Shown piece after piece: positions 2,533 through 50,466 of a DNA stretch of 64,000 nt; positions within the stretch are counted from its first letter, which is position 1, and each line of letters opens with the position of its first letter. The notes under the pieces are model-generated. The model had not been told where the DNA came from. It saw only the letters and a list, made by a program, of their open reading frames with translations, and ran no database searches. The position numbers were made by a program, and so were the translations under genes. The DNA comes from Candidatus Eiseniibacteriota bacterium (GTDB lineage: Bacteria > Eisenbacteria > RBG-16-71-46), in assembly GCA_963717505.1 (NCBI GenBank), contig OY970342.1, forward strand, positions 256,001-320,000, read 5' to 3'.

Positions 2533-3876
2533 ATGCGAATCGCTGCCTGCCTTGCCTTGTTCCTCCTTTCGGCTCCTGCCGTGGCGCCCGCGGCAACGCC
2601 CACGGACTTCATCGACGAACTCAGAGCCAGCGGACTCAGCGAACCGGTCGGCATGGCATTCCTGCCCGACGGCCGGCTGCTGGTGGTCGAGCAATTCAGC
2701 GCCGCAATCAAGATGGTTCGCAACGGCGTCGTCAGCACGTTGACGGTGGTCCCCAACGTCCAGACCGGCGGCGAGCAGGGGCTGCTCGGCATCGCGGTCG
2801 ATCCGCGCTGGCCATTCCAACCGCACATCTACGTGCACTACACGTTCGCGGAATTGCCGGGGACAATCCGCATTTCGCGCTTCACGCTTTCCGGGGATCT
2901 CACCAACACGGAAAACGGATCTCTCACGCTCATCCCCGGCTTGCGCTACGACCTGATCACCGACATCGCGAACGACTTCACCAACCACAACGGCGGCACC
3001 GTCCGCTTCGGCCCCGACGGCATGCTGTACGTGAGCCTGGGCGAGGATGCGCGCGCGTGCCTCGCCCAGGACTCGACCGAACTCAACGGCAAGATCCTGC
3101 GACTCGACGTCACCCGGCTTCCCATAACGCCCGGAGGTCCGCCCGCCCGGTCGTTGATCACCCCGCCCGACAACCCGTTCGTCAACCACCCGAATGCCAA
3201 CGCCCGCCTGGTGTGGGCGATGGGGCTTCGGAATCCGTTCCGCTTCCACATCGACGCGCCGACCGGCGATTTGTTCATTGCCGACGTCGGACAGAGCGCG
3301 TGGGAAGAGATCGACCACGCGACCGGACCCGGACTCAACTTCGGCTGGCCGTGGCGCGAAGGCCCCGATCCCCTGGGCGCGTGCGGGAGCGGACCGACCA
3401 CCGGATTCACGCCGCCGATCCATGCTTTCGATCACGACATCATGACGGTCGCAATCAGCGCAGGGCTCTATCGGAGGAACGGAGGCGCACTCCAGTTTCC
3501 TTACTCCTACGAGGGCGACTACTTCTTCTCGTCCTACTACGACGGCGCGCTGTATCGACTCAAGGAGTCGGGCGGCTCGTGGTTCATCGCGCCCCAGGTT
3601 CCCGGCCAGACGGGCCTCGCGTGGGCGACCGGACTCCAGAATGCCGCCGACTTCGCGATCGGTCCCGACGGCGGCCTGTGGTACTGCCGCCAGGGTGTGG
3701 GCACCGTCCGGCGGATCTCGTTCATCGGCGTCACGGCGGTCGACCCGGCGCCCCTCCCGGGCCCGGATCCCGAGGACCGCGCCTACTACGACCTGCAGGG
3801 CAGGCGGGTGGACGAACCCAAGCAAAATGGGCTCTACTTCACCCGTGACGGCAGGCGTAAGGTCGTACTTCGCTAG
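2533..3876 (+). CDS. Exported PQQ-dependent sugar dehydrogenase, copy 2
   Basis: Start at MRIAACLALF; same GSDH motifs and C-terminal tail as copy 1. Confidence 0.9.
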   Translation: MRIAACLALFLLSAPAVAPAATPTDFIDELRASGLSEPVGMAFLPDGRLLVVEQFSAAIKMVRNGVVSTLTVVPNVQTGGEQGLLGIAVDPRWPFQPHIYVHYTFAELPGTIRISRFTLSGDLTNTENGSLTLIPGLRYDLITDIANDFTNHNGGTVRFGPDGMLYVSLGEDARACLAQDSTELNGKILRLDVTRLPITPGGPPARSLITPPDNPFVNHPNANARLVWAMGLRNPFRFHIDAPTGDLFIADVGQSAWEEIDHATGPGLNFGWPWREGPDPLGACGSGPTTGFTPPIHAFDHDIMTVAISAGLYRRNGGALQFPYSYEGDYFFSSYYDGALYRLKESGGSWFIAPQVPGQTGLAWATGLQNAADFAIGPDGGLWYCRQGVGTVRRISFIGVTAVDPAPLPGPDPEDRAYYDLQGRRVDEPKQNGLYFTRDGRRKVVLR

Positions 3877-3933
3877 GTGGCTGTGCTGCCGCAAACGCGG
3901 CCACGCCTGATTGTGCCGCAGAGAGATGGTTCC

Positions 3934-5286
3934 TTGCGTTACCTCAGTTTGATCATGGCCGGCGCGCTGGCGCTCGCGCCCACAACCAGCACGGCGAGCA
4001 CGCCGCTCGGTTTTGTCGACCAACCCCAGGTGACGGGGCTCGAACGCCCGGTCGGGTTCACCTTCCTGCCCGACGGGCGCATCCTGATCGTCGAGCAGTT
4101 GTCCGGGGCGATCCGCGCGGCGGAGAACGGCGTGGTATCGACGCTGACCGTGGTGCCCGACCTGGTCGCCGGGGGCGAGCAAGGGTTGCTGGGAATTGCG
4201 GTCGATCCCCGGTGGCCGGCGGCGCCCTACATCTACGTCCATTTCACCCGCGCGGGATTCCCGTCGACGATCTGCGTGACGCGCTACGCGCTCGGCGACG
4301 ACTTCGAACGCGGCGGCGGCGGCTTGAGCATAGACCCCGCCTCGCGCTTCGACGTGTTGAACGACATTCCCAACGACGATCCGATCCACAACGGCGGCAC
4401 GTTGCGCTTCGGTCCCGACCGGATGCTCTACGTCAGCATTGGCGACGACGCGATCGCGTGCCGGTCGCAGGACACGACCAGCTTGAACGGCAAGATCCTG
4501 CGGCTCGACGTGCGCAACCTGCCCGACGGCCCCGGCGGCCCGGCCGACAAGGCTTTGCTGGCGCCGGCCGACAACCCGTTCGCCAGCCACCCGGACCCGA
4601 ACGCGCGGCTGGTGTGGGCCATGGGCCTCCGCAACCCCTTCCGATTCAACATTCATCCAACGACCGGCGAGGTGTTCGTGGCCGACGTCGGACAGGACGA
4701 ATGGGAAGAGCTCGACATCGCGAGCACCCCCGGCCTCAACTATGGTTGGCCATGGCGAGAAGGTCCGTGGTCGCTCGGCATGTGCGGCGAGAACGCGGAC
4801 AGTGGATTCGTCGAGCCCACGCAGGCGTTCGATCACGGCGAGATGAGCGCCATCATCAGTGGCAGCGTCTACACGCGTAACGGCGGCCGCCACCAATTTC
4901 CGCCGGAATACGACGGCGACTTCTTCTTCTCGGACTACGGGTCGGGGAATCTGCTGCGACTCGAGAACACGGCCGGCGTCTGGTCGATCGCACCCCCGGT
5001 GATCGGACAGCCCTCGTCGCGAGTCTGGGCTGACGGGCTGATTACGGCCTCGGACTACTCGATTGGCCCCGACGGCGCCCTTTGGTATGCCAGCAACCGA
5101 TTCGAAGGCTCCCTCAACCGGATCGCCTACGTCTTCGGGATCGACGAAGAGGAACCCCCACCCGGGCCGGATGTGGGACCCGAGGATCCCGTCTACTACG
5201 ACCTGCAGGGCCGGCGCGTCGACGACCCCAAGCAGAACGGGCTCTACTTTACGCGCACTGGGAAGCGGAAAGTCGTGCTTCGTTAG
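3934..5286 (+). CDS. Exported PQQ-dependent sugar dehydrogenase, copy 3
   Basis: Probable TTG start (MRYLSLIMAGALALAP); GTG at 3877 is an alternative. Same motifs and tail. Confidence 0.88.
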   Translation: MRYLSLIMAGALALAPTTSTASTPLGFVDQPQVTGLERPVGFTFLPDGRILIVEQLSGAIRAAENGVVSTLTVVPDLVAGGEQGLLGIAVDPRWPAAPYIYVHFTRAGFPSTICVTRYALGDDFERGGGGLSIDPASRFDVLNDIPNDDPIHNGGTLRFGPDRMLYVSIGDDAIACRSQDTTSLNGKILRLDVRNLPDGPGGPADKALLAPADNPFASHPDPNARLVWAMGLRNPFRFNIHPTTGEVFVADVGQDEWEELDIASTPGLNYGWPWREGPWSLGMCGENADSGFVEPTQAFDHGEMSAIISGSVYTRNGGRHQFPPEYDGDFFFSDYGSGNLLRLENTAGVWSIAPPVIGQPSSRVWADGLITASDYSIGPDGALWYASNRFEGSLNRIAYVFGIDEEEPPPGPDVGPEDPVYYDLQGRRVDDPKQNGLYFTRTGKRKVVLR

Positions 5287-47072: not shown

Positions 47073-48086
47073 TCAGCTCAGGACGAATCTCCCCCGCGTC
47101 AGGTAGTTCATCGCCATCGTGGTGCCGTACGCGGTCAGCTCCACGAGATATTCGCCCTCCCGGGTGGTCGCGGCCTGGAGCCCGAGTTCCCGGCAGGTGC
47201 GGATGATGCGCTCGACCAGCGCGCGCACGACCGGGCGCTTGACCCCGGTCCAGTAGGTGATCTTGTCGGTCAGCGTCTCGCGGTGCGCCTGTAGAAGATC
47301 GGCCGCCGGGCGCACGTTCTTGCGCCGGCGTCCGGCCGGAATGAACAGATCGGCAAGGTCGCTTTCCAGCGCCACGTTCACGCCTGCCCCGTTCTGGCGA
47401 ATCAGCCGCCGGTAGAACTGCGCCACCGTGAGCTTCATGTCCTCGACCGTGATGTCGAAATCTCCAGTCGACACCGCCGGATCCTGATCGCGGACCGAAC
47501 GTACGACGCGGTCAACATACCGCAGCTTGATGAGCGCTGGCCAGAGCTTGTACTTGTGCCGCCAGTTGGAACGCGGCGTCAACCACACCGCAAACGTTTC
47601 GGCGAAGTCTTCGTCGGGGTGCTTCTGCGCGTACCAGCCCGCAATGTGCCGCACGTACTTGCGGCTGAACGGCACCGGACGGTAGTGGTCGCGATAGCGT
47701 CGGTTGTAGGGGCCGAACAGCTTGCGCCACTCGGGCGTCGCATACAGACGATACGCGTAGTTGAACGCGTGGCCGGCCTCGTGACGCAGGTACATCATGA
47801 TCTCCTGCGCGTCTTCGAGGTCGTTCATCTGGCGTTCGAGTCGGGCGAGCTTGGGATCGGCGAGATAGAACGGAATCCCGATTACCGGCTGTCCGTCGGG
47901 ACAGCCCCACTCGTCGGTCAAGTAGCACACCGGCCGAAATTTCTTGAGCCCCTTGCGCTCCAGCTCGCGATAGAGCTGATGGACGAAGTGCTCGACCGGC
48001 GAACCCTCGAGCCGCAGTCCGAGCTGGCTGATGCGCTTGCCGAGCAGCTCCTGAACGTCGGGCGGGGTTTTCTCGAAGTCGGTCAT
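47073..48086 (-). CDS. Putative zinc-binding metallopeptidase, partner of the ATP-grasp ligase
   Basis: DEWGCPDG, IPFYLA, LRHEAGH and YAQKHPDEDFAETF motifs. Confidence 0.82.
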   Translation of the reverse strand: MTDFEKTPPDVQELLGKRISQLGLRLEGSPVEHFVHQLYRELERKGLKKFRPVCYLTDEWGCPDGQPVIGIPFYLADPKLARLERQMNDLEDAQEIMMYLRHEAGHAFNYAYRLYATPEWRKLFGPYNRRYRDHYRPVPFSRKYVRHIAGWYAQKHPDEDFAETFAVWLTPRSNWRHKYKLWPALIKLRYVDRVVRSVRDQDPAVSTGDFDITVEDMKLTVAQFYRRLIRQNGAGVNVALESDLADLFIPAGRRRKNVRPAADLLQAHRETLTDKITYWTGVKRPVVRALVERIIRTCRELGLQAATTREGEYLVELTAYGTTMAMNYLTRGRFVLS

Positions 48087-48184
48087 GGTTCCGGATGAGG
48101 GTCGAGGGGCTGAGGCAGCCGCTGATGCTATCCGGCCCCTCGGGGGGCGACAAGCGCTGCGCGGTTCCGCTAGATTGGGCGGGA

Positions 48185-48889
48185 ATGTCGGCAAAGACGC
48201 GACCTCGCGAACCACGTCACTGGGTGTGGCGCATTTTGACGATGCTGGCTCTGCTCGCGGGGCTCTACGATCCGGCGTGGGCGCAGTCCGACCCGGCGCC
48301 GGCGCCGCCCAAGCTCGCACGGCCACGCTCGGTGGTCCCCACCTGAAGTGGTTGACCCGGCGAGGGGGCGCCGCTCCGGGGGAGCGGACTTCATACTCCG
48401 TGGACCATGTCGTTGCGCTGGGTGGACTTCGAGGTCGAGCGCGCGCGCTGGCGGGCGACTGCGGCTTATCGGATCCTGCACACCGTTCAGCTCGGCGTTG
48501 AGTACAATATCGCCGCCAACGAGTTGGCGCCGCTCGCGACCTGGTTCCTGATGACCGAGGACGATCGCCGGCCGGCGGTGTTCCTGGGGACCAGCTCCGA
48601 TCGGATCGGTTCGCCGGAAGGCACGCAGTCGTACTACCTGACCGCAGCCAAGGCGTTCCCGGTCGTGCGCACGGCGCCCTACGTGACCATCAACTACTCC
48701 GAATGGGATTCCGGATGGAACATCCCCTTCGGGGCCAACGTCGACCTAGGTGGCGGGTTCTCGGTGCTGCCGATGTACGATGGCGAGCGCGGGCATCTCA
48801 CCGGCAGCTGGTCGAACGACCGAATGAGCGTCACGGCGCTTTGGGTGTGGTTCGAACATTTCGGCGTGGCCGCGGCCGTGGGATTCTGA
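48185..48889 (+). CDS. Candidate selenoprotein (234 aa): signal peptide, UxxU motif (two in-frame UGA at codons 54 and 57) and an outer-membrane beta-barrel
   Basis: ORFs 48095..48346 and 48407..48889 share one frame and are joined by ACC-TGA-AGT-GGT-TGA-CCC. A SECIS-like hairpin follows. Ends in the barrel-type signal FGVAAAVGF. Confidence 0.7.
48371..48387 (+). promoter_or_regulatory. Candidate bacterial SECIS hairpin
   Basis: CCGCTCC-GGG-GGAGCGG; G-rich apical loop about 22 nt after the second UGA and about 31 nt after the first. Confidence 0.55.
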
Positions 48890-48911: not shown

Positions 48912-49604
48912 ATGAGATTCGCGATGATCGCGTTGCTCCTGTGCCTGGGGGTGTCGACGGCGTCGGCCGGCGAGCCCGCGGCCGCGGCGAGCGACAAGGC
49001 CTCCAGCGATGCGCCGGCGCTGCAGACTGCGGTCTGCCCGGTGTGCCGGCTCAACGGCGAAACCGAGCCCGAAGCGGTGAAGGCGACGCGCATCTGGAAC
49101 GGAACCACCTACGGGTTCTGCTCCGACAAGTGCGCGCAGACCTTCGACGCCAATCCCGCCGCCTACGTGCTCGGCGAACTGCCGTACACCGCACCCGCGC
49201 TCGCGGCCAAGGGGCTGGACGGCAAGCCGGTCACCCTCGAGAAGCATGCCGGCCAGATCGTGCTGGTCGACTTCTGGGCGACCTGGTGTGCGCCCTGCAT
49301 CAAGACCATGCCCGAGCTGCAGAAGCTGCACGATCGCTACGCGTCGCAAGGTGTGGTGATCCTCGGACTGTCGGTCGACGAGGATCCCAAGAAGGTCACC
49401 AAGTTCCTCAAGGGCAAGAAACTCACCTACCCGATCGCCCTCGATGCCGGCGAAACGCCGGCGTTCCAGACCTGGGGTGTTCAGGCCGTCCCGGCCGCGT
49501 TCCTGGTCGACCGTAGCGGCAAGGTGGTGGCGCGCTGGCTGGGTCGCACGGACCCGCGCGCCGTCGAGGAGGAAATCGAACTCCTTTTGAAAGCCGGCTC
49601 CTGA
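48912..49604 (+). CDS. Exported YHS-domain plus TlpA-like thiol:disulfide oxidoreductase
   Basis: Signal peptide; CPVC...YGFCSDKCAQTF (YHS); VDFWATWCAPC (TlpA); AVP cis-Pro loop. Confidence 0.9.
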   Translation: MRFAMIALLLCLGVSTASAGEPAAAASDKASSDAPALQTAVCPVCRLNGETEPEAVKATRIWNGTTYGFCSDKCAQTFDANPAAYVLGELPYTAPALAAKGLDGKPVTLEKHAGQIVLVDFWATWCAPCIKTMPELQKLHDRYASQGVVILGLSVDEDPKKVTKFLKGKKLTYPIALDAGETPAFQTWGVQAVPAAFLVDRSGKVVARWLGRTDPRAVEEEIELLLKAGS

Positions 49605-49753: not shown

Positions 49754-50407
49754 ATGAAGCGCGTACTCATGCTGGCGGCAATGGCCCTGGCCGCGACGGC
49801 GTCGCTGGTCGGCGCCGAGCCCGCCCCCTACAAGATCGACGTGACCCACTCGGAAGTCGGCTTCCGGATCCGCCACTTCTTCTCGAAGACGCCAGGCCGG
49901 TTCAACGACTACGCCGGCACGATCATGTTCGACGACAAGAACCTCGCGAACTCGTCGGTGGACGTGACCATCCAGACCGCGAGCATCTACACCAACAACG
50001 AGAAGCGCGACGGCCACCTGAAGAGCGCGGACTTCTTCGACGCCGAGAAACACCCGACGCTCACCTTCAAGAGCACCAAGATCGAGCCGGGCGAAGGCGG
50101 CAAGTTCAAGATCCACGGCGACCTGACCATGCGTGGCGTGACCAAGCCGGTGGTGCTCGATGCCGAGCTGGTCGGCAGTGGCAATCTAGGCCAGATGGGC
50201 ACGCGCGCCGGGTTCGCCGCCTCGACCATGGTCAATCGCAAGGACTACGGCATCCTCTGGAACCGGACGCTCGACCAGGGCGGCACCATGCTCGACGACA
50301 ATGTCACGATCGAGATCCAGATCGAGGCGATCAAGGTGGATCCGGCCAAGGAAGCAGCCGCAAAGGAAGCGGCGAAGCCGGCGGCGCCGGCCACGACTTC
50401 GAAGTAA
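49754..50407 (+). CDS. yceI: YceI-family lipid/polyisoprenoid-binding protein
   Basis: IDVTHSEVGFRIRH, RDGHLKSADFFD and GDLTMRGVTK motifs. Confidence 0.92.
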   Translation: MKRVLMLAAMALAATASLVGAEPAPYKIDVTHSEVGFRIRHFFSKTPGRFNDYAGTIMFDDKNLANSSVDVTIQTASIYTNNEKRDGHLKSADFFDAEKHPTLTFKSTKIEPGEGGKFKIHGDLTMRGVTKPVVLDAELVGSGNLGQMGTRAGFAASTMVNRKDYGILWNRTLDQGGTMLDDNVTIEIQIEAIKVDPAKEAAAKEAAKPAAPATTSK

Positions 50408-50430: not shown

Positions 50431-50466
50431 AACGGCCTCCCGTCACCGGGAGGCCGTTCTGTTTTC
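50431..50466 (+). terminator. Rho-independent terminator
   Basis: AACGGCCTCCCG-TCAC-CGGGAGGCCGTT followed by CTGTTTT. Confidence 0.8.

Follow-up and report, generated by a model that had tools for sequence, protein, structure and literature searches.

Two stretches of coding sequence on a contig of a Candidatus Eiseniibacteriota bacterium share one reading frame and are separated only by a few codons that include two TGAs, and the question raised by this locus is whether they are two independent units or a single gene whose TGAs are read as selenocysteine (Sec, U). The locus lies at positions 48185-48889 of the window, by which we mean the whole 64,000-nucleotide stretch that was analysed (contig OY970342.1, positions 256,001 to 320,000 of the forward strand; C1:256001-320000 of the window's genome, G000, which is 4.16 Mb in one contig). 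Our results suggest that 48185-48889 is likely one gene for a secreted, predicted selenoprotein with a UxxU motif on an arm ahead of a predicted beta-barrel (Table 1). Within this frame the TGAs at 48344-48346 and 48353-48355, referred to below as UGA1 and UGA2, are the sole internal stops. The read-through protein begins MSAKTRPREPRHWVWRILTMLALLAGLYDPAWA|QSDP, passes the two UGAs in the context ...ARPRSVVPT-U-SG-U-PGEGAPLRGSGLHTPW... and ends in ...AAAVGF, which closes the 160-residue downstream part. The original prediction, made from the letters of the window, had described a single frame with a signal peptide, the arrangement P-T-UGA-S-G-UGA-P-G and a terminal Phe, and its coordinates were confirmed; its further claim, that the two UGAs belong to one read-through secreted barrel with UxxU and a downstream selenocysteine insertion sequence (SECIS), was supported by all of the proposed tests that were run.

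We searched 201 genomes of the window's phylum using the read-through protein as query. Matches were obtained in 45 genomes as 51 match rows, 46 of which carried two TGAs; of the five remaining rows, three stop short of residues 54-57 and the other two belong to a single frameshifted remnant in G048, the nominal start of one piece being residue 54. Both TGAs are present in 30/30 genome loci (29/29 if L004, from the unpublished genome G015, is left out), which read ...PT-U-[S/A/G]-G-U-PGEGAPLRGSG... with one-residue variants in L013 and L030, and which have a variable signal peptide upstream and a barrel ending in GF downstream. A metagenome scan yielded 237 relatives and 80 kept loci, of which 79 contain U-x-G-U (72 USGU and 7 UVGU) while the 80th starts past the site. 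Both TGAs were therefore found in 109/109 informative loci, with flanking protein at 50-67% identity, and this observation is far beyond chance or error. Codons and hairpin were compared in an alignment of 108 loci comprising 94 distinct sequences, across which the nucleotide stretch 48344-48387 is very conserved. One genome carries two tandem copies of the gene (G164:C18:2432-3064 and 3620-4219), both with two TGAs. Decayed copies were also encountered. L154 (G048:C144:27300-28500) is a frameshifted barrel without the arm, adjoining an RND-pump gene, and L155 and L156 (G050:C401 and G187:C106) are arm-only remnants, identical to each other, that have lost the barrel and show a mismatch in the stem of the hairpin.

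The sequence on both sides of the UGAs behaves as one coding frame. All 103 loci with enough sequence have 40 or more open codons in this frame upstream of UGA1, and a hydrophobic 12-mer (Kyte-Doolittle value of 2.0 or more) occurs there in the UGA frame in 87 of the 103; for the two remaining frames the counts are 3 and 1. The signal peptide call combines this frame test with a reading of the sequence. The amino acids of the RPRP.A.APT motif before UGA1 are conserved and their third codon positions vary, wobble positions vary in the GGY GAR GGN that follows directly 3' of UGA2, and the pattern of substitutions from the UGAs to the hairpin respects codon positions. In the 30 loci the earliest start codon available past UGA2 occurs at 7 different offsets, from +46 to +130 nt, so that 48407 is not a conserved start, a point on which homologs were to be checked. 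A protein begun at 48407 would have no signal peptide, as the original prediction had correctly said of the downstream open reading frame (ORF) on its own. This 160-aa ORF has 842 homologs in a set of 5.8 billion proteins, and the few named ones come from Candidatus Eisenbacteria / Eiseniibacteriota metagenome-assembled genomes. The best 120 of the 842 are all 137-169 aa long, which indicates that gene callers place the start after the TGAs.

Homologs with cysteine in place of Sec were identified by an exhaustive, profile-free search of 1.84 billion representatives. In seven of these proteins (P0135, P0138, P0152, P0184, P0141, P0162 and P0167) the sequence PTCAGCAGEAR is aligned to PTUSGUPGEGAP of the window, and a species-genome scan placed the Cys-form proteins in Armatimonadota (Fimbriimonadaceae, Chthonomonas). 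Among 19 Armatimonadota loci, 17 read PT-C-A-G-C and two, L052 and L068, read PT-U-A-G-C; site 1 is thus TGC in 17 and TGA in 2, while site 2 is TGC in 19/19. In the Cys forms the same stretch is uninterrupted coding sequence. In comparative work, the occurrence of CxxC, UxxC and UxxU forms in one family is the usual mark of a true selenoprotein family. Three database proteins (P0144, P0227 and P0271) show W in place of the U or C of the family (WSGW, CVGW; P0144 is less certain). This W probably represents TGA translated under a Trp-reading code, and P0144 may be a CxxU form.

A 7-bp hairpin, CCGCUCC-GGG-GGAGCGG, follows the two UGAs with its loop starting 31 nt after UGA1 and 22 nt after UGA2, the distances given in the original prediction. 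The bSECIS model has a 3-9 nt loop with G at positions 1-2, a 4-16 bp stem, a UGA-loop distance of 16-37 nt and a minimum free energy of -7.5 kcal/mol or lower (PMC13188914), and the hairpin at 48371-48387 agrees with these rules for both UGAs. Folded alone it reaches -12.8 kcal/mol (z -2.2; 8/200 shuffles as good). Over the 94 distinct sequences the stem is paired in 99.2% of 658 cells, with 6 cells changed on both sides, a level reached by 0/500 shuffles. Pair 45-51 is never broken (C-G 89, U-A 5), and pair 42-54 is G-C in 75, G-U in 14, A-U in 1 and unpaired in 4; the four unpaired cases are the UVGU lineage, where U54 can bulge and a lineage-specific G57 restores the 7-bp stem. Four-fold degenerate stem positions keep one base in 89, 89, 86 and 89 of the 94, while three positions just upstream vary freely. 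In a rule-based scan with a cut-off of -7.5 kcal/mol or lower, a qualifying hairpin was found in 90/94 Sec forms (median -14.9 kcal/mol), 3/17 Cys forms (median -4.2) and 58/282 shuffles. As for the two UxxC loci, L052 has a similar hairpin at the same distance and L068 has a UUCG loop that fails one rule.

The window's genome encodes the apparatus for Sec insertion: SelA (8e-147), SelB (345 bits, over the cut-off), SelD (347 bits, with its own in-frame TGA) and a single tRNA-Sec(UCA) gene (67 bits, Rfam). SelA was found in 187/201 genomes of the phylum sample and Sec-type SelD in all five Armatimonadota genomes tested, so co-occurrence with SelA cannot discriminate. Neither Rfam nor whole-genome ARAGORN gave a second tRNA-Sec-like gene in G000. 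tRNA-Ser(CGA) is the second Rfam match above threshold, and the lower-ranking ones that were checked proved to be tRNA-Leu and tRNA-Ser; ARAGORN reported one tRNA-SeC(UCA), one ordinary 75-nt tRNA-Cys(GCA) and one unassigned call. The latter is a 91-nt 'tRNA-???' with an odd anticodon loop at G000:C1:3623405-3623495 (complement), to which the Rfam tRNA-Sec model gave no match. The selD gene lies at G000:C1:3020964-3022153 with its TGA at 3020994 (...ACAG-U-AAKMG...), and tRNA-Sec(UCA) is located ~170 nt downstream of it. G000:C1:2064250-2065701 (L152:1351-2802) holds a second selenoprotein gene of an unannotated type, an UshA-like PCGU gene (NF041198, 283 bits against a cut-off of 275) with an in-frame TGA at 2064454 and four C-terminal CxxCH haem motifs.

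Both of these genes have hairpins of their own, GGGUCC-GGC-GGACCU at 17 nt from the UGA of selD and the 7-bp CUGGCCC-GGC-GGGCCAG at 25 nt from the UGA of the UshA-like gene. A GGN-loop apex closed by C is common to the hairpins of the barrel gene, selD and the UshA-like gene. Scanning the whole genome for this apex motif gave 13 candidates, two of which are the confirmed selenoprotein genes selD and the UshA-like gene. One candidate was rejected as the ordinary stop codon of a sigma-54-type regulator gene, and the other 10 did not resemble real coding sequence at a first look, with no follow-up.

AlphaFold2, run on a 37-sequence alignment, gave a model of the protein (predicted local distance difference test, pLDDT, 82.6; predicted template modelling score, pTM, 0.74) whose downstream part is a beta-barrel, with twelve strands over residues 73-233 at a pLDDT of about 83-94. 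The best fold matches were FapF (5o65; Z 16.7), a COG4313 channel (4rl8; Z 16.1) and KdgM (4pr7; Z 16.0), followed by autotransporter beta-domains (Z ~14) and NanC (2wjr; Z 13.6); the copper transporter PcoB reached only Z 8.7 to the barrel model. The likeness to solved 12-stranded barrels (Z 13.6-16.7) extends to a root-mean-square deviation of 2.3-3.1 Å over 150-168 residues, and the FapF, COG4313 and autotransporter matches run into model residues 46-57, before the first strand. The differences are a sequence identity of just 6-12%, the absence of Pfam membership for the barrel protein, and the absence of such barrels from the selenoprotein catalogue (PMC13188914). No Pfam or NCBIfam (release 20.0) family was found at cut-off for the Sec form or for 10 homologs including Cys forms. 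The KdgM/NanC porin family was therefore set aside along with every other named Pfam/NCBIfam barrel family, since none gave a model match by sequence, and a 'DUF3570' label attached to one homolog by one source found no DUF3570 match in Pfam. A search of the ESM Atlas with the Cys homolog P0138 returned unnamed barrel clusters only. An outer-membrane beta-barrel is expected to have an N-terminal signal peptide, an aromatic residue at the C-terminus and an even number of amphipathic strands closed into a barrel; with its signal-like N-terminus, terminal Phe and 12 modelled strands, the protein is predicted to be of this type.

The gene immediately downstream encodes a signal peptide, a YHS domain and a TlpA/ResA-like thioredoxin. 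A homolog of this YHS+TlpA gene adjoins the barrel gene on the same strand in 29/30 loci (28 downstream, one upstream), and the last locus is at a contig edge. In Armatimonadota the signal peptide, YHS/TRASH-like domains, CxxC arm and barrel form one protein in 17/19 loci; three YHS stretches of these fusions were scored by Pfam in the representative P0141 and the rest were read by eye. A TlpA-like gene lies just downstream in 14 Armatimonadota loci by tblastn. No downstream TlpA match was obtained by tblastn in L052, L061, L062, L064 and L069, and the contig of L068 ends soon after the gene. The fusion and the adjacency conserved across two phyla are arguments for a joint function of the arm, the YHS module and the reductase.

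Table 1. Coordinates of the barrel gene, its parts and its downstream neighbours in the window
Feature	Coordinates	Strand	Basis
Predicted selenoprotein gene, whole	48185..48889	+	234 codons plus TGA stop at 48887-48889; full-length matches with two TGAs in related genomes
Predicted signal peptide, residues 1-33, ending ...DPAWA|QS, without lipobox Cys	48185..48283	+	Read from sequence
Flexible N-terminal arm, residues 34-72, motif RPR..PT-U-S-G-U-PGEGAPLRGSG	48284..48400	+	Motif kept in 28/30 genome loci, hardly varying in the metagenome loci
UGA1, codon 54, predicted Sec54	48344..48346	+	TGA in 108/108 aligned loci
UGA2, codon 57, predicted Sec57	48353..48355	+	TGA in 108/108 aligned loci
Candidate SECIS core, 7-bp stem and GGG loop	48371..48387	+	Pairing across loci, energy, apex type
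Predicted 12-stranded transmembrane beta-barrel, residues 73-234, Gly-Phe end	48401..48886	+	AlphaFold2 and fold matches
Partner gene: signal peptide, YHS and TlpA/ResA-like thioredoxin (WCAPC)	48912..49604	+	22 nt downstream; Pfam Redoxin 9.6e-25, YHS 2.1e-7; NCBIfam ResA/TlpA
YceI-like periplasmic protein, possible third operon gene	49754..50407	+	Pfam YceI 6.1e-53
Terminator-like hairpin and T-run after YceI-like gene	50431..50458	+	12-bp stem, consensus scan

A mechanism consistent with these results can be proposed. Both UGAs, 9 nt apart, would be recoded as selenocysteine by SelB and tRNA-Sec, and a single SECIS hairpin at 48371-48387 would direct recoding at both codons. A Sec-type signal peptide would export the protein, residues 73-234 would fold as a 12-stranded outer-membrane beta-barrel ending in Phe, and the N-terminal arm with its Pro-Thr-Sec-x-Gly-Sec would be found on the periplasmic side, according to the usual barrel topology, or in the pore. 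The barrel protein would act with the co-transcribed periplasmic YHS-domain/TlpA-like thiol-disulfide reductase: the two selenolates may capture or hand over a soft metal ion at the channel mouth, Cu(I) being the leading candidate, the YHS domain may receive or deliver the metal, and the TlpA thioredoxin domain may keep the selenolate pair reduced. A Thr precedes the selenolates as it does in the GMTCxxC metal-binding motif. We put the metal part of this function forward as a tentative suggestion, at a little under an even chance. It is tempting to speculate further about a new envelope system common to Eisenbacteria-like bacteria and Armatimonadota, in which the arm of a small channel, at or in the pore, serves as a chalcogen 'hook' of CxxC, UxxC or UxxU type and is serviced by YHS and TlpA, the whole forming a selenium-dependent gate or relay by which a soft metal(loid), for instance copper and perhaps even selenium, crosses the outer membrane, while its mRNA has one minimal SECIS decoding two UGAs 9 nt apart; in this full form the proposal is doubtful.

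The checks suggested along with the original prediction gave largely concordant results: homologs carry TGA/TGA, TGA/TGC or TGC/TGC at the two positions, the hairpin is conserved and covarying in them, selA, selB, selD and tRNA-Sec are all present, structure prediction returned an outer-membrane barrel, and contigs covering the site from two public runs (one of them an RNA library) show no difference at either TGA, although these contigs are from relatives at ~90% identity. Several observations weigh against the reading of the locus as one Sec-containing barrel gene. The TGAs are confirmed through relatives and not through this genome's own reads, as none of the public runs holds more than 0.20 of the sampled words of this genome. 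The presence of selenium in the protein is predicted from sequence. Among the 45 genomes with barrel hits, four gave no SelA match (G043, which is 94% complete, G168, G199 and G103), and Pfam showed no copper or selenium enzyme in the wider neighbourhood (8 ORFs, 41.9-53.3 kb). The evidence for a metal or redox function consists of domain names and gene linkage, and the diselenide or metal-binding role put forward in the original prediction is likewise a hypothesis. The Sec-bearing arm is modelled at a pLDDT of 53-59, which makes its modelled position unreliable, and the plug-like placement of the arm is for that reason only a hint.

The RNA also offers arguments on that side. RNAalifold favours a long stem, mutually exclusive with the hairpin, in which the UGA region is paired with the 5' arm of the hairpin. 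This long stem is 95.4% paired over the 94 sequences, and its pair 18-42 is never broken (C-G 69, U-G 20, G-C 4, U-A 1) and includes 5 double changes. Moreover, when 56-84 nt around the UGAs are folded as single sequences, the result does not improve on shuffles (z -0.4 to -0.5), and the shuffle controls are inflated by kinship. Elsewhere the long stem is broken, at pairs 12-48 and 21-39 in 19 of 94 sequences each, at 4-54 in 10 and at 17-43 in 9. Columns 16-21 and 39-44 of alignment A6 (48347-48352 and 48370-48375 of the window) pair the Ser-Gly codons with the complementary 5' arm of the hairpin. The long stem may be an alternative resting state of the ribosome-free mRNA, in competition with the SECIS. 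Once a ribosome stands on UGA1, the mRNA channel would enclose the 5' arm of the long stem, and we therefore take the short hairpin to be the working SECIS.

How else might the locus be explained? The two TGAs could be assembly or sequencing errors or the gene a pseudogene, but all that speaks for this are the two stops themselves, together with the decayed copies found elsewhere (G048, and the arm-only copies in G050 and G187). Those remnants look different, having frameshifts, a deleted barrel or a mutated hairpin, and identical TGAs in 109 independent loci whose flanking protein has diverged to 50-67% identity make this explanation scarcely credible. Alternatively, there could be two units, a short upstream ORF that stops at 48344 and a 160-aa protein from 48407, with a conserved regulatory RNA other than a SECIS between them. 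This is how gene callers annotate the best 120 of the 842 homologs, and the strong nucleotide conservation of 48344-48387 and some covariation in the long stem would fit it. It leaves the barrel without a signal peptide, however, and it does not fit the 7 first-start offsets, the conservation in phase of the upstream frame and signal peptide, the codon-wise substitutions between UGAs and hairpin, the uninterrupted coding of this stretch with Cys codons in Armatimonadota, or the lack of a hairpin in most Cys forms (3/17 qualify); we regard it as highly improbable. Greater weight attaches to the possibility that one or both UGAs are read as cysteine, by SelB with a tRNA of the tRNA-ReC/selC* type or depending on selenium supply, to give CxxC, UxxC or CxxU. 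Genes resembling tRNA-ReC are reported in about 56% of UXXU-hydrogenase genomes, including 5/5 Armatimonadota, with a caution from the authors that in such genomes Cys might be inserted at either UGA (PMC13582414). Cys is also tolerated at both positions in the barrel family. Against this, G000 has a single tRNA-Sec-like gene by Rfam and ARAGORN, its unassigned ARAGORN call is not matched by the tRNA-Sec model, and the retention of TGA at both sites in 109/109 loci would be hard to explain if the product were Cys. We judge cysteine decoding improbable and infer that both codons receive Sec and not some other residue.

The main functional alternative shares this gene model and differs from the best explanation in chemistry only. 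The UxxU arm might have a purely redox job, cycling between diselenide and diselenol as a peroxide or disulfide relay or as a pore gate, with TlpA recycling it and no metal involved. Most predicted bacterial selenoproteins have thioredoxin-like folds with redox-active motifs, according to the catalogue (PMC13188914), and the partner here is itself a thioredoxin-fold reductase. The arm, on the other hand, has no thioredoxin fold, and a pure relay leaves unexplained why a YHS/TRASH-type domain is kept in both phyla, fused to the reductase in one arrangement and to the barrel in the other. A role in redox chemistry alone thus seems rather unlikely.

The locus can be compared with several known systems. 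SelL is a eukaryotic selenoprotein with UxxU in a thioredoxin fold, decoded through a SECIS in the 3'-UTR. The barrel protein differs from it in having no thioredoxin fold, and a weak SelL-related model match was obtained only to the neighbouring gene. The original prediction had named SelL as the known case of UxxU, and this background has to be corrected, since bacterial UxxU families exist: a Prx-like thiol:disulfide oxidoreductase, the NF041115 metal-binding protein and an FmdB-family protein are listed in Table 1 of PMC13188914, and UXXU-type Group 4 [NiFeSe] hydrogenases are described in PMC13582414. Like these, the barrel gene has two UGAs three codons apart in place of CxxC, then one SECIS-like hairpin, and it has CxxC and single-Sec relatives; the hydrogenase paper raises the same idea of a single SECIS for both codons (PMC13582414). 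Unlike these, whose folds and cell locations are unrelated to it, the barrel protein carries its UxxU on an arm without confident structure ahead of the barrel, whereas the site is thioredoxin, HMA or Ni-binding in the known families. Membership in the Prx-like, NF041115 HMA-type, FmdB and SelL families, whose UxxU is carried by a thioredoxin, HMA or zinc-ribbon fold, was rejected, as no NCBIfam or Pfam model matched the barrel protein.

Outer-membrane barrels have been predicted to be selenoproteins before, namely GSU2204/MtrB-PioB (NF041027) and an FCYXU-type TonB-dependent receptor (NF049945; PMC13188914). They resemble the present protein as outer-membrane beta-barrels with in-frame Sec codons, known from prediction only, and differ in belonging to other families, in their far greater size and in having a single Sec; neither NF041027 nor NF049945 matched the barrel protein at E <= 1. 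The earlier claim that no barrel selenoprotein family like this had been described must thus be narrowed: other barrel selenoproteins had been predicted, and none of them is this family. The 2026 catalogue has 119 selenoprotein families in Table 1, and the barrel family is not among them (PMC13188914). No description of the family was found in the literature on selenocysteine in Eisenbacteria or on selenoprotein outer-membrane beta-barrels or porins, and the deep-Sep paper is silent on barrels, the outer membrane and UxxU; in all three cases a listing in a supplement is possible. Among envelope systems, TlpA with ScoI/CoxB is a copper-linked periplasmic TlpA-type reductase. The Scs system is Cu-induced (PMC10907172). 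The TlpA/Scs systems likewise have a thioredoxin-fold envelope reductase genetically tied to a metal-binding module, with the difference that here the reductase itself carries YHS and the conserved neighbour is a barrel with a di-Sec arm, a kind of partner that none of the literature consulted describes. The decoding mechanism is therefore a known one, while the family, its location and its envelope system appear to be new.

If the proposed gene model holds, it would add one more selenoprotein family to the 119, an unusual one because its members are small, porin-like barrels of the outer membrane whose flexible arm bears two Sec. A systematic annotation error would also be corrected, as the best 120 of the 842 homologs are listed as 'hypothetical proteins' of 137-169 aa that lack both the signal peptide and the active motif. 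The linkage of CxxC, UxxC and UxxU forms to YHS and TlpA in two phyla would point to an envelope system that has yet to be characterised and whose supposed role in metal or redox chemistry can be tested, and the short, near-invariant hairpin for two nearby UGAs would provide a compact natural model for the limits of SelB/SECIS spacing.

The remaining observations concern the surroundings of the gene. The YceI-like gene that follows the partner gene is also found downstream in L013; it is conserved in 2/30 loci, and as most loci extend only ~1.5 kb downstream of the barrel, the linkage is weak. The consensus scan found 2 terminator-type sites in comparison with 1.7 expected. A scan for promoters gave no sigma-70-like promoter, though the 96-nt gap before 48185 should hold both promoters. 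On the other side of this gap lies a divergent gene (47073-48088, minus strand) whose product weakly resembles putative zinc metallopeptidases (Peptidase_Mx, 1.2e-8). In 6/30 loci (L003, L004, L005, L008, L009 and L015) a gene for a small secreted Cys-rich protein of about 110-140 aa (CC..x..CC..C..C) precedes UGA1 by about 180-620 nt in the same orientation, at a place where the window has none, and this protein may be a further partner in the system.

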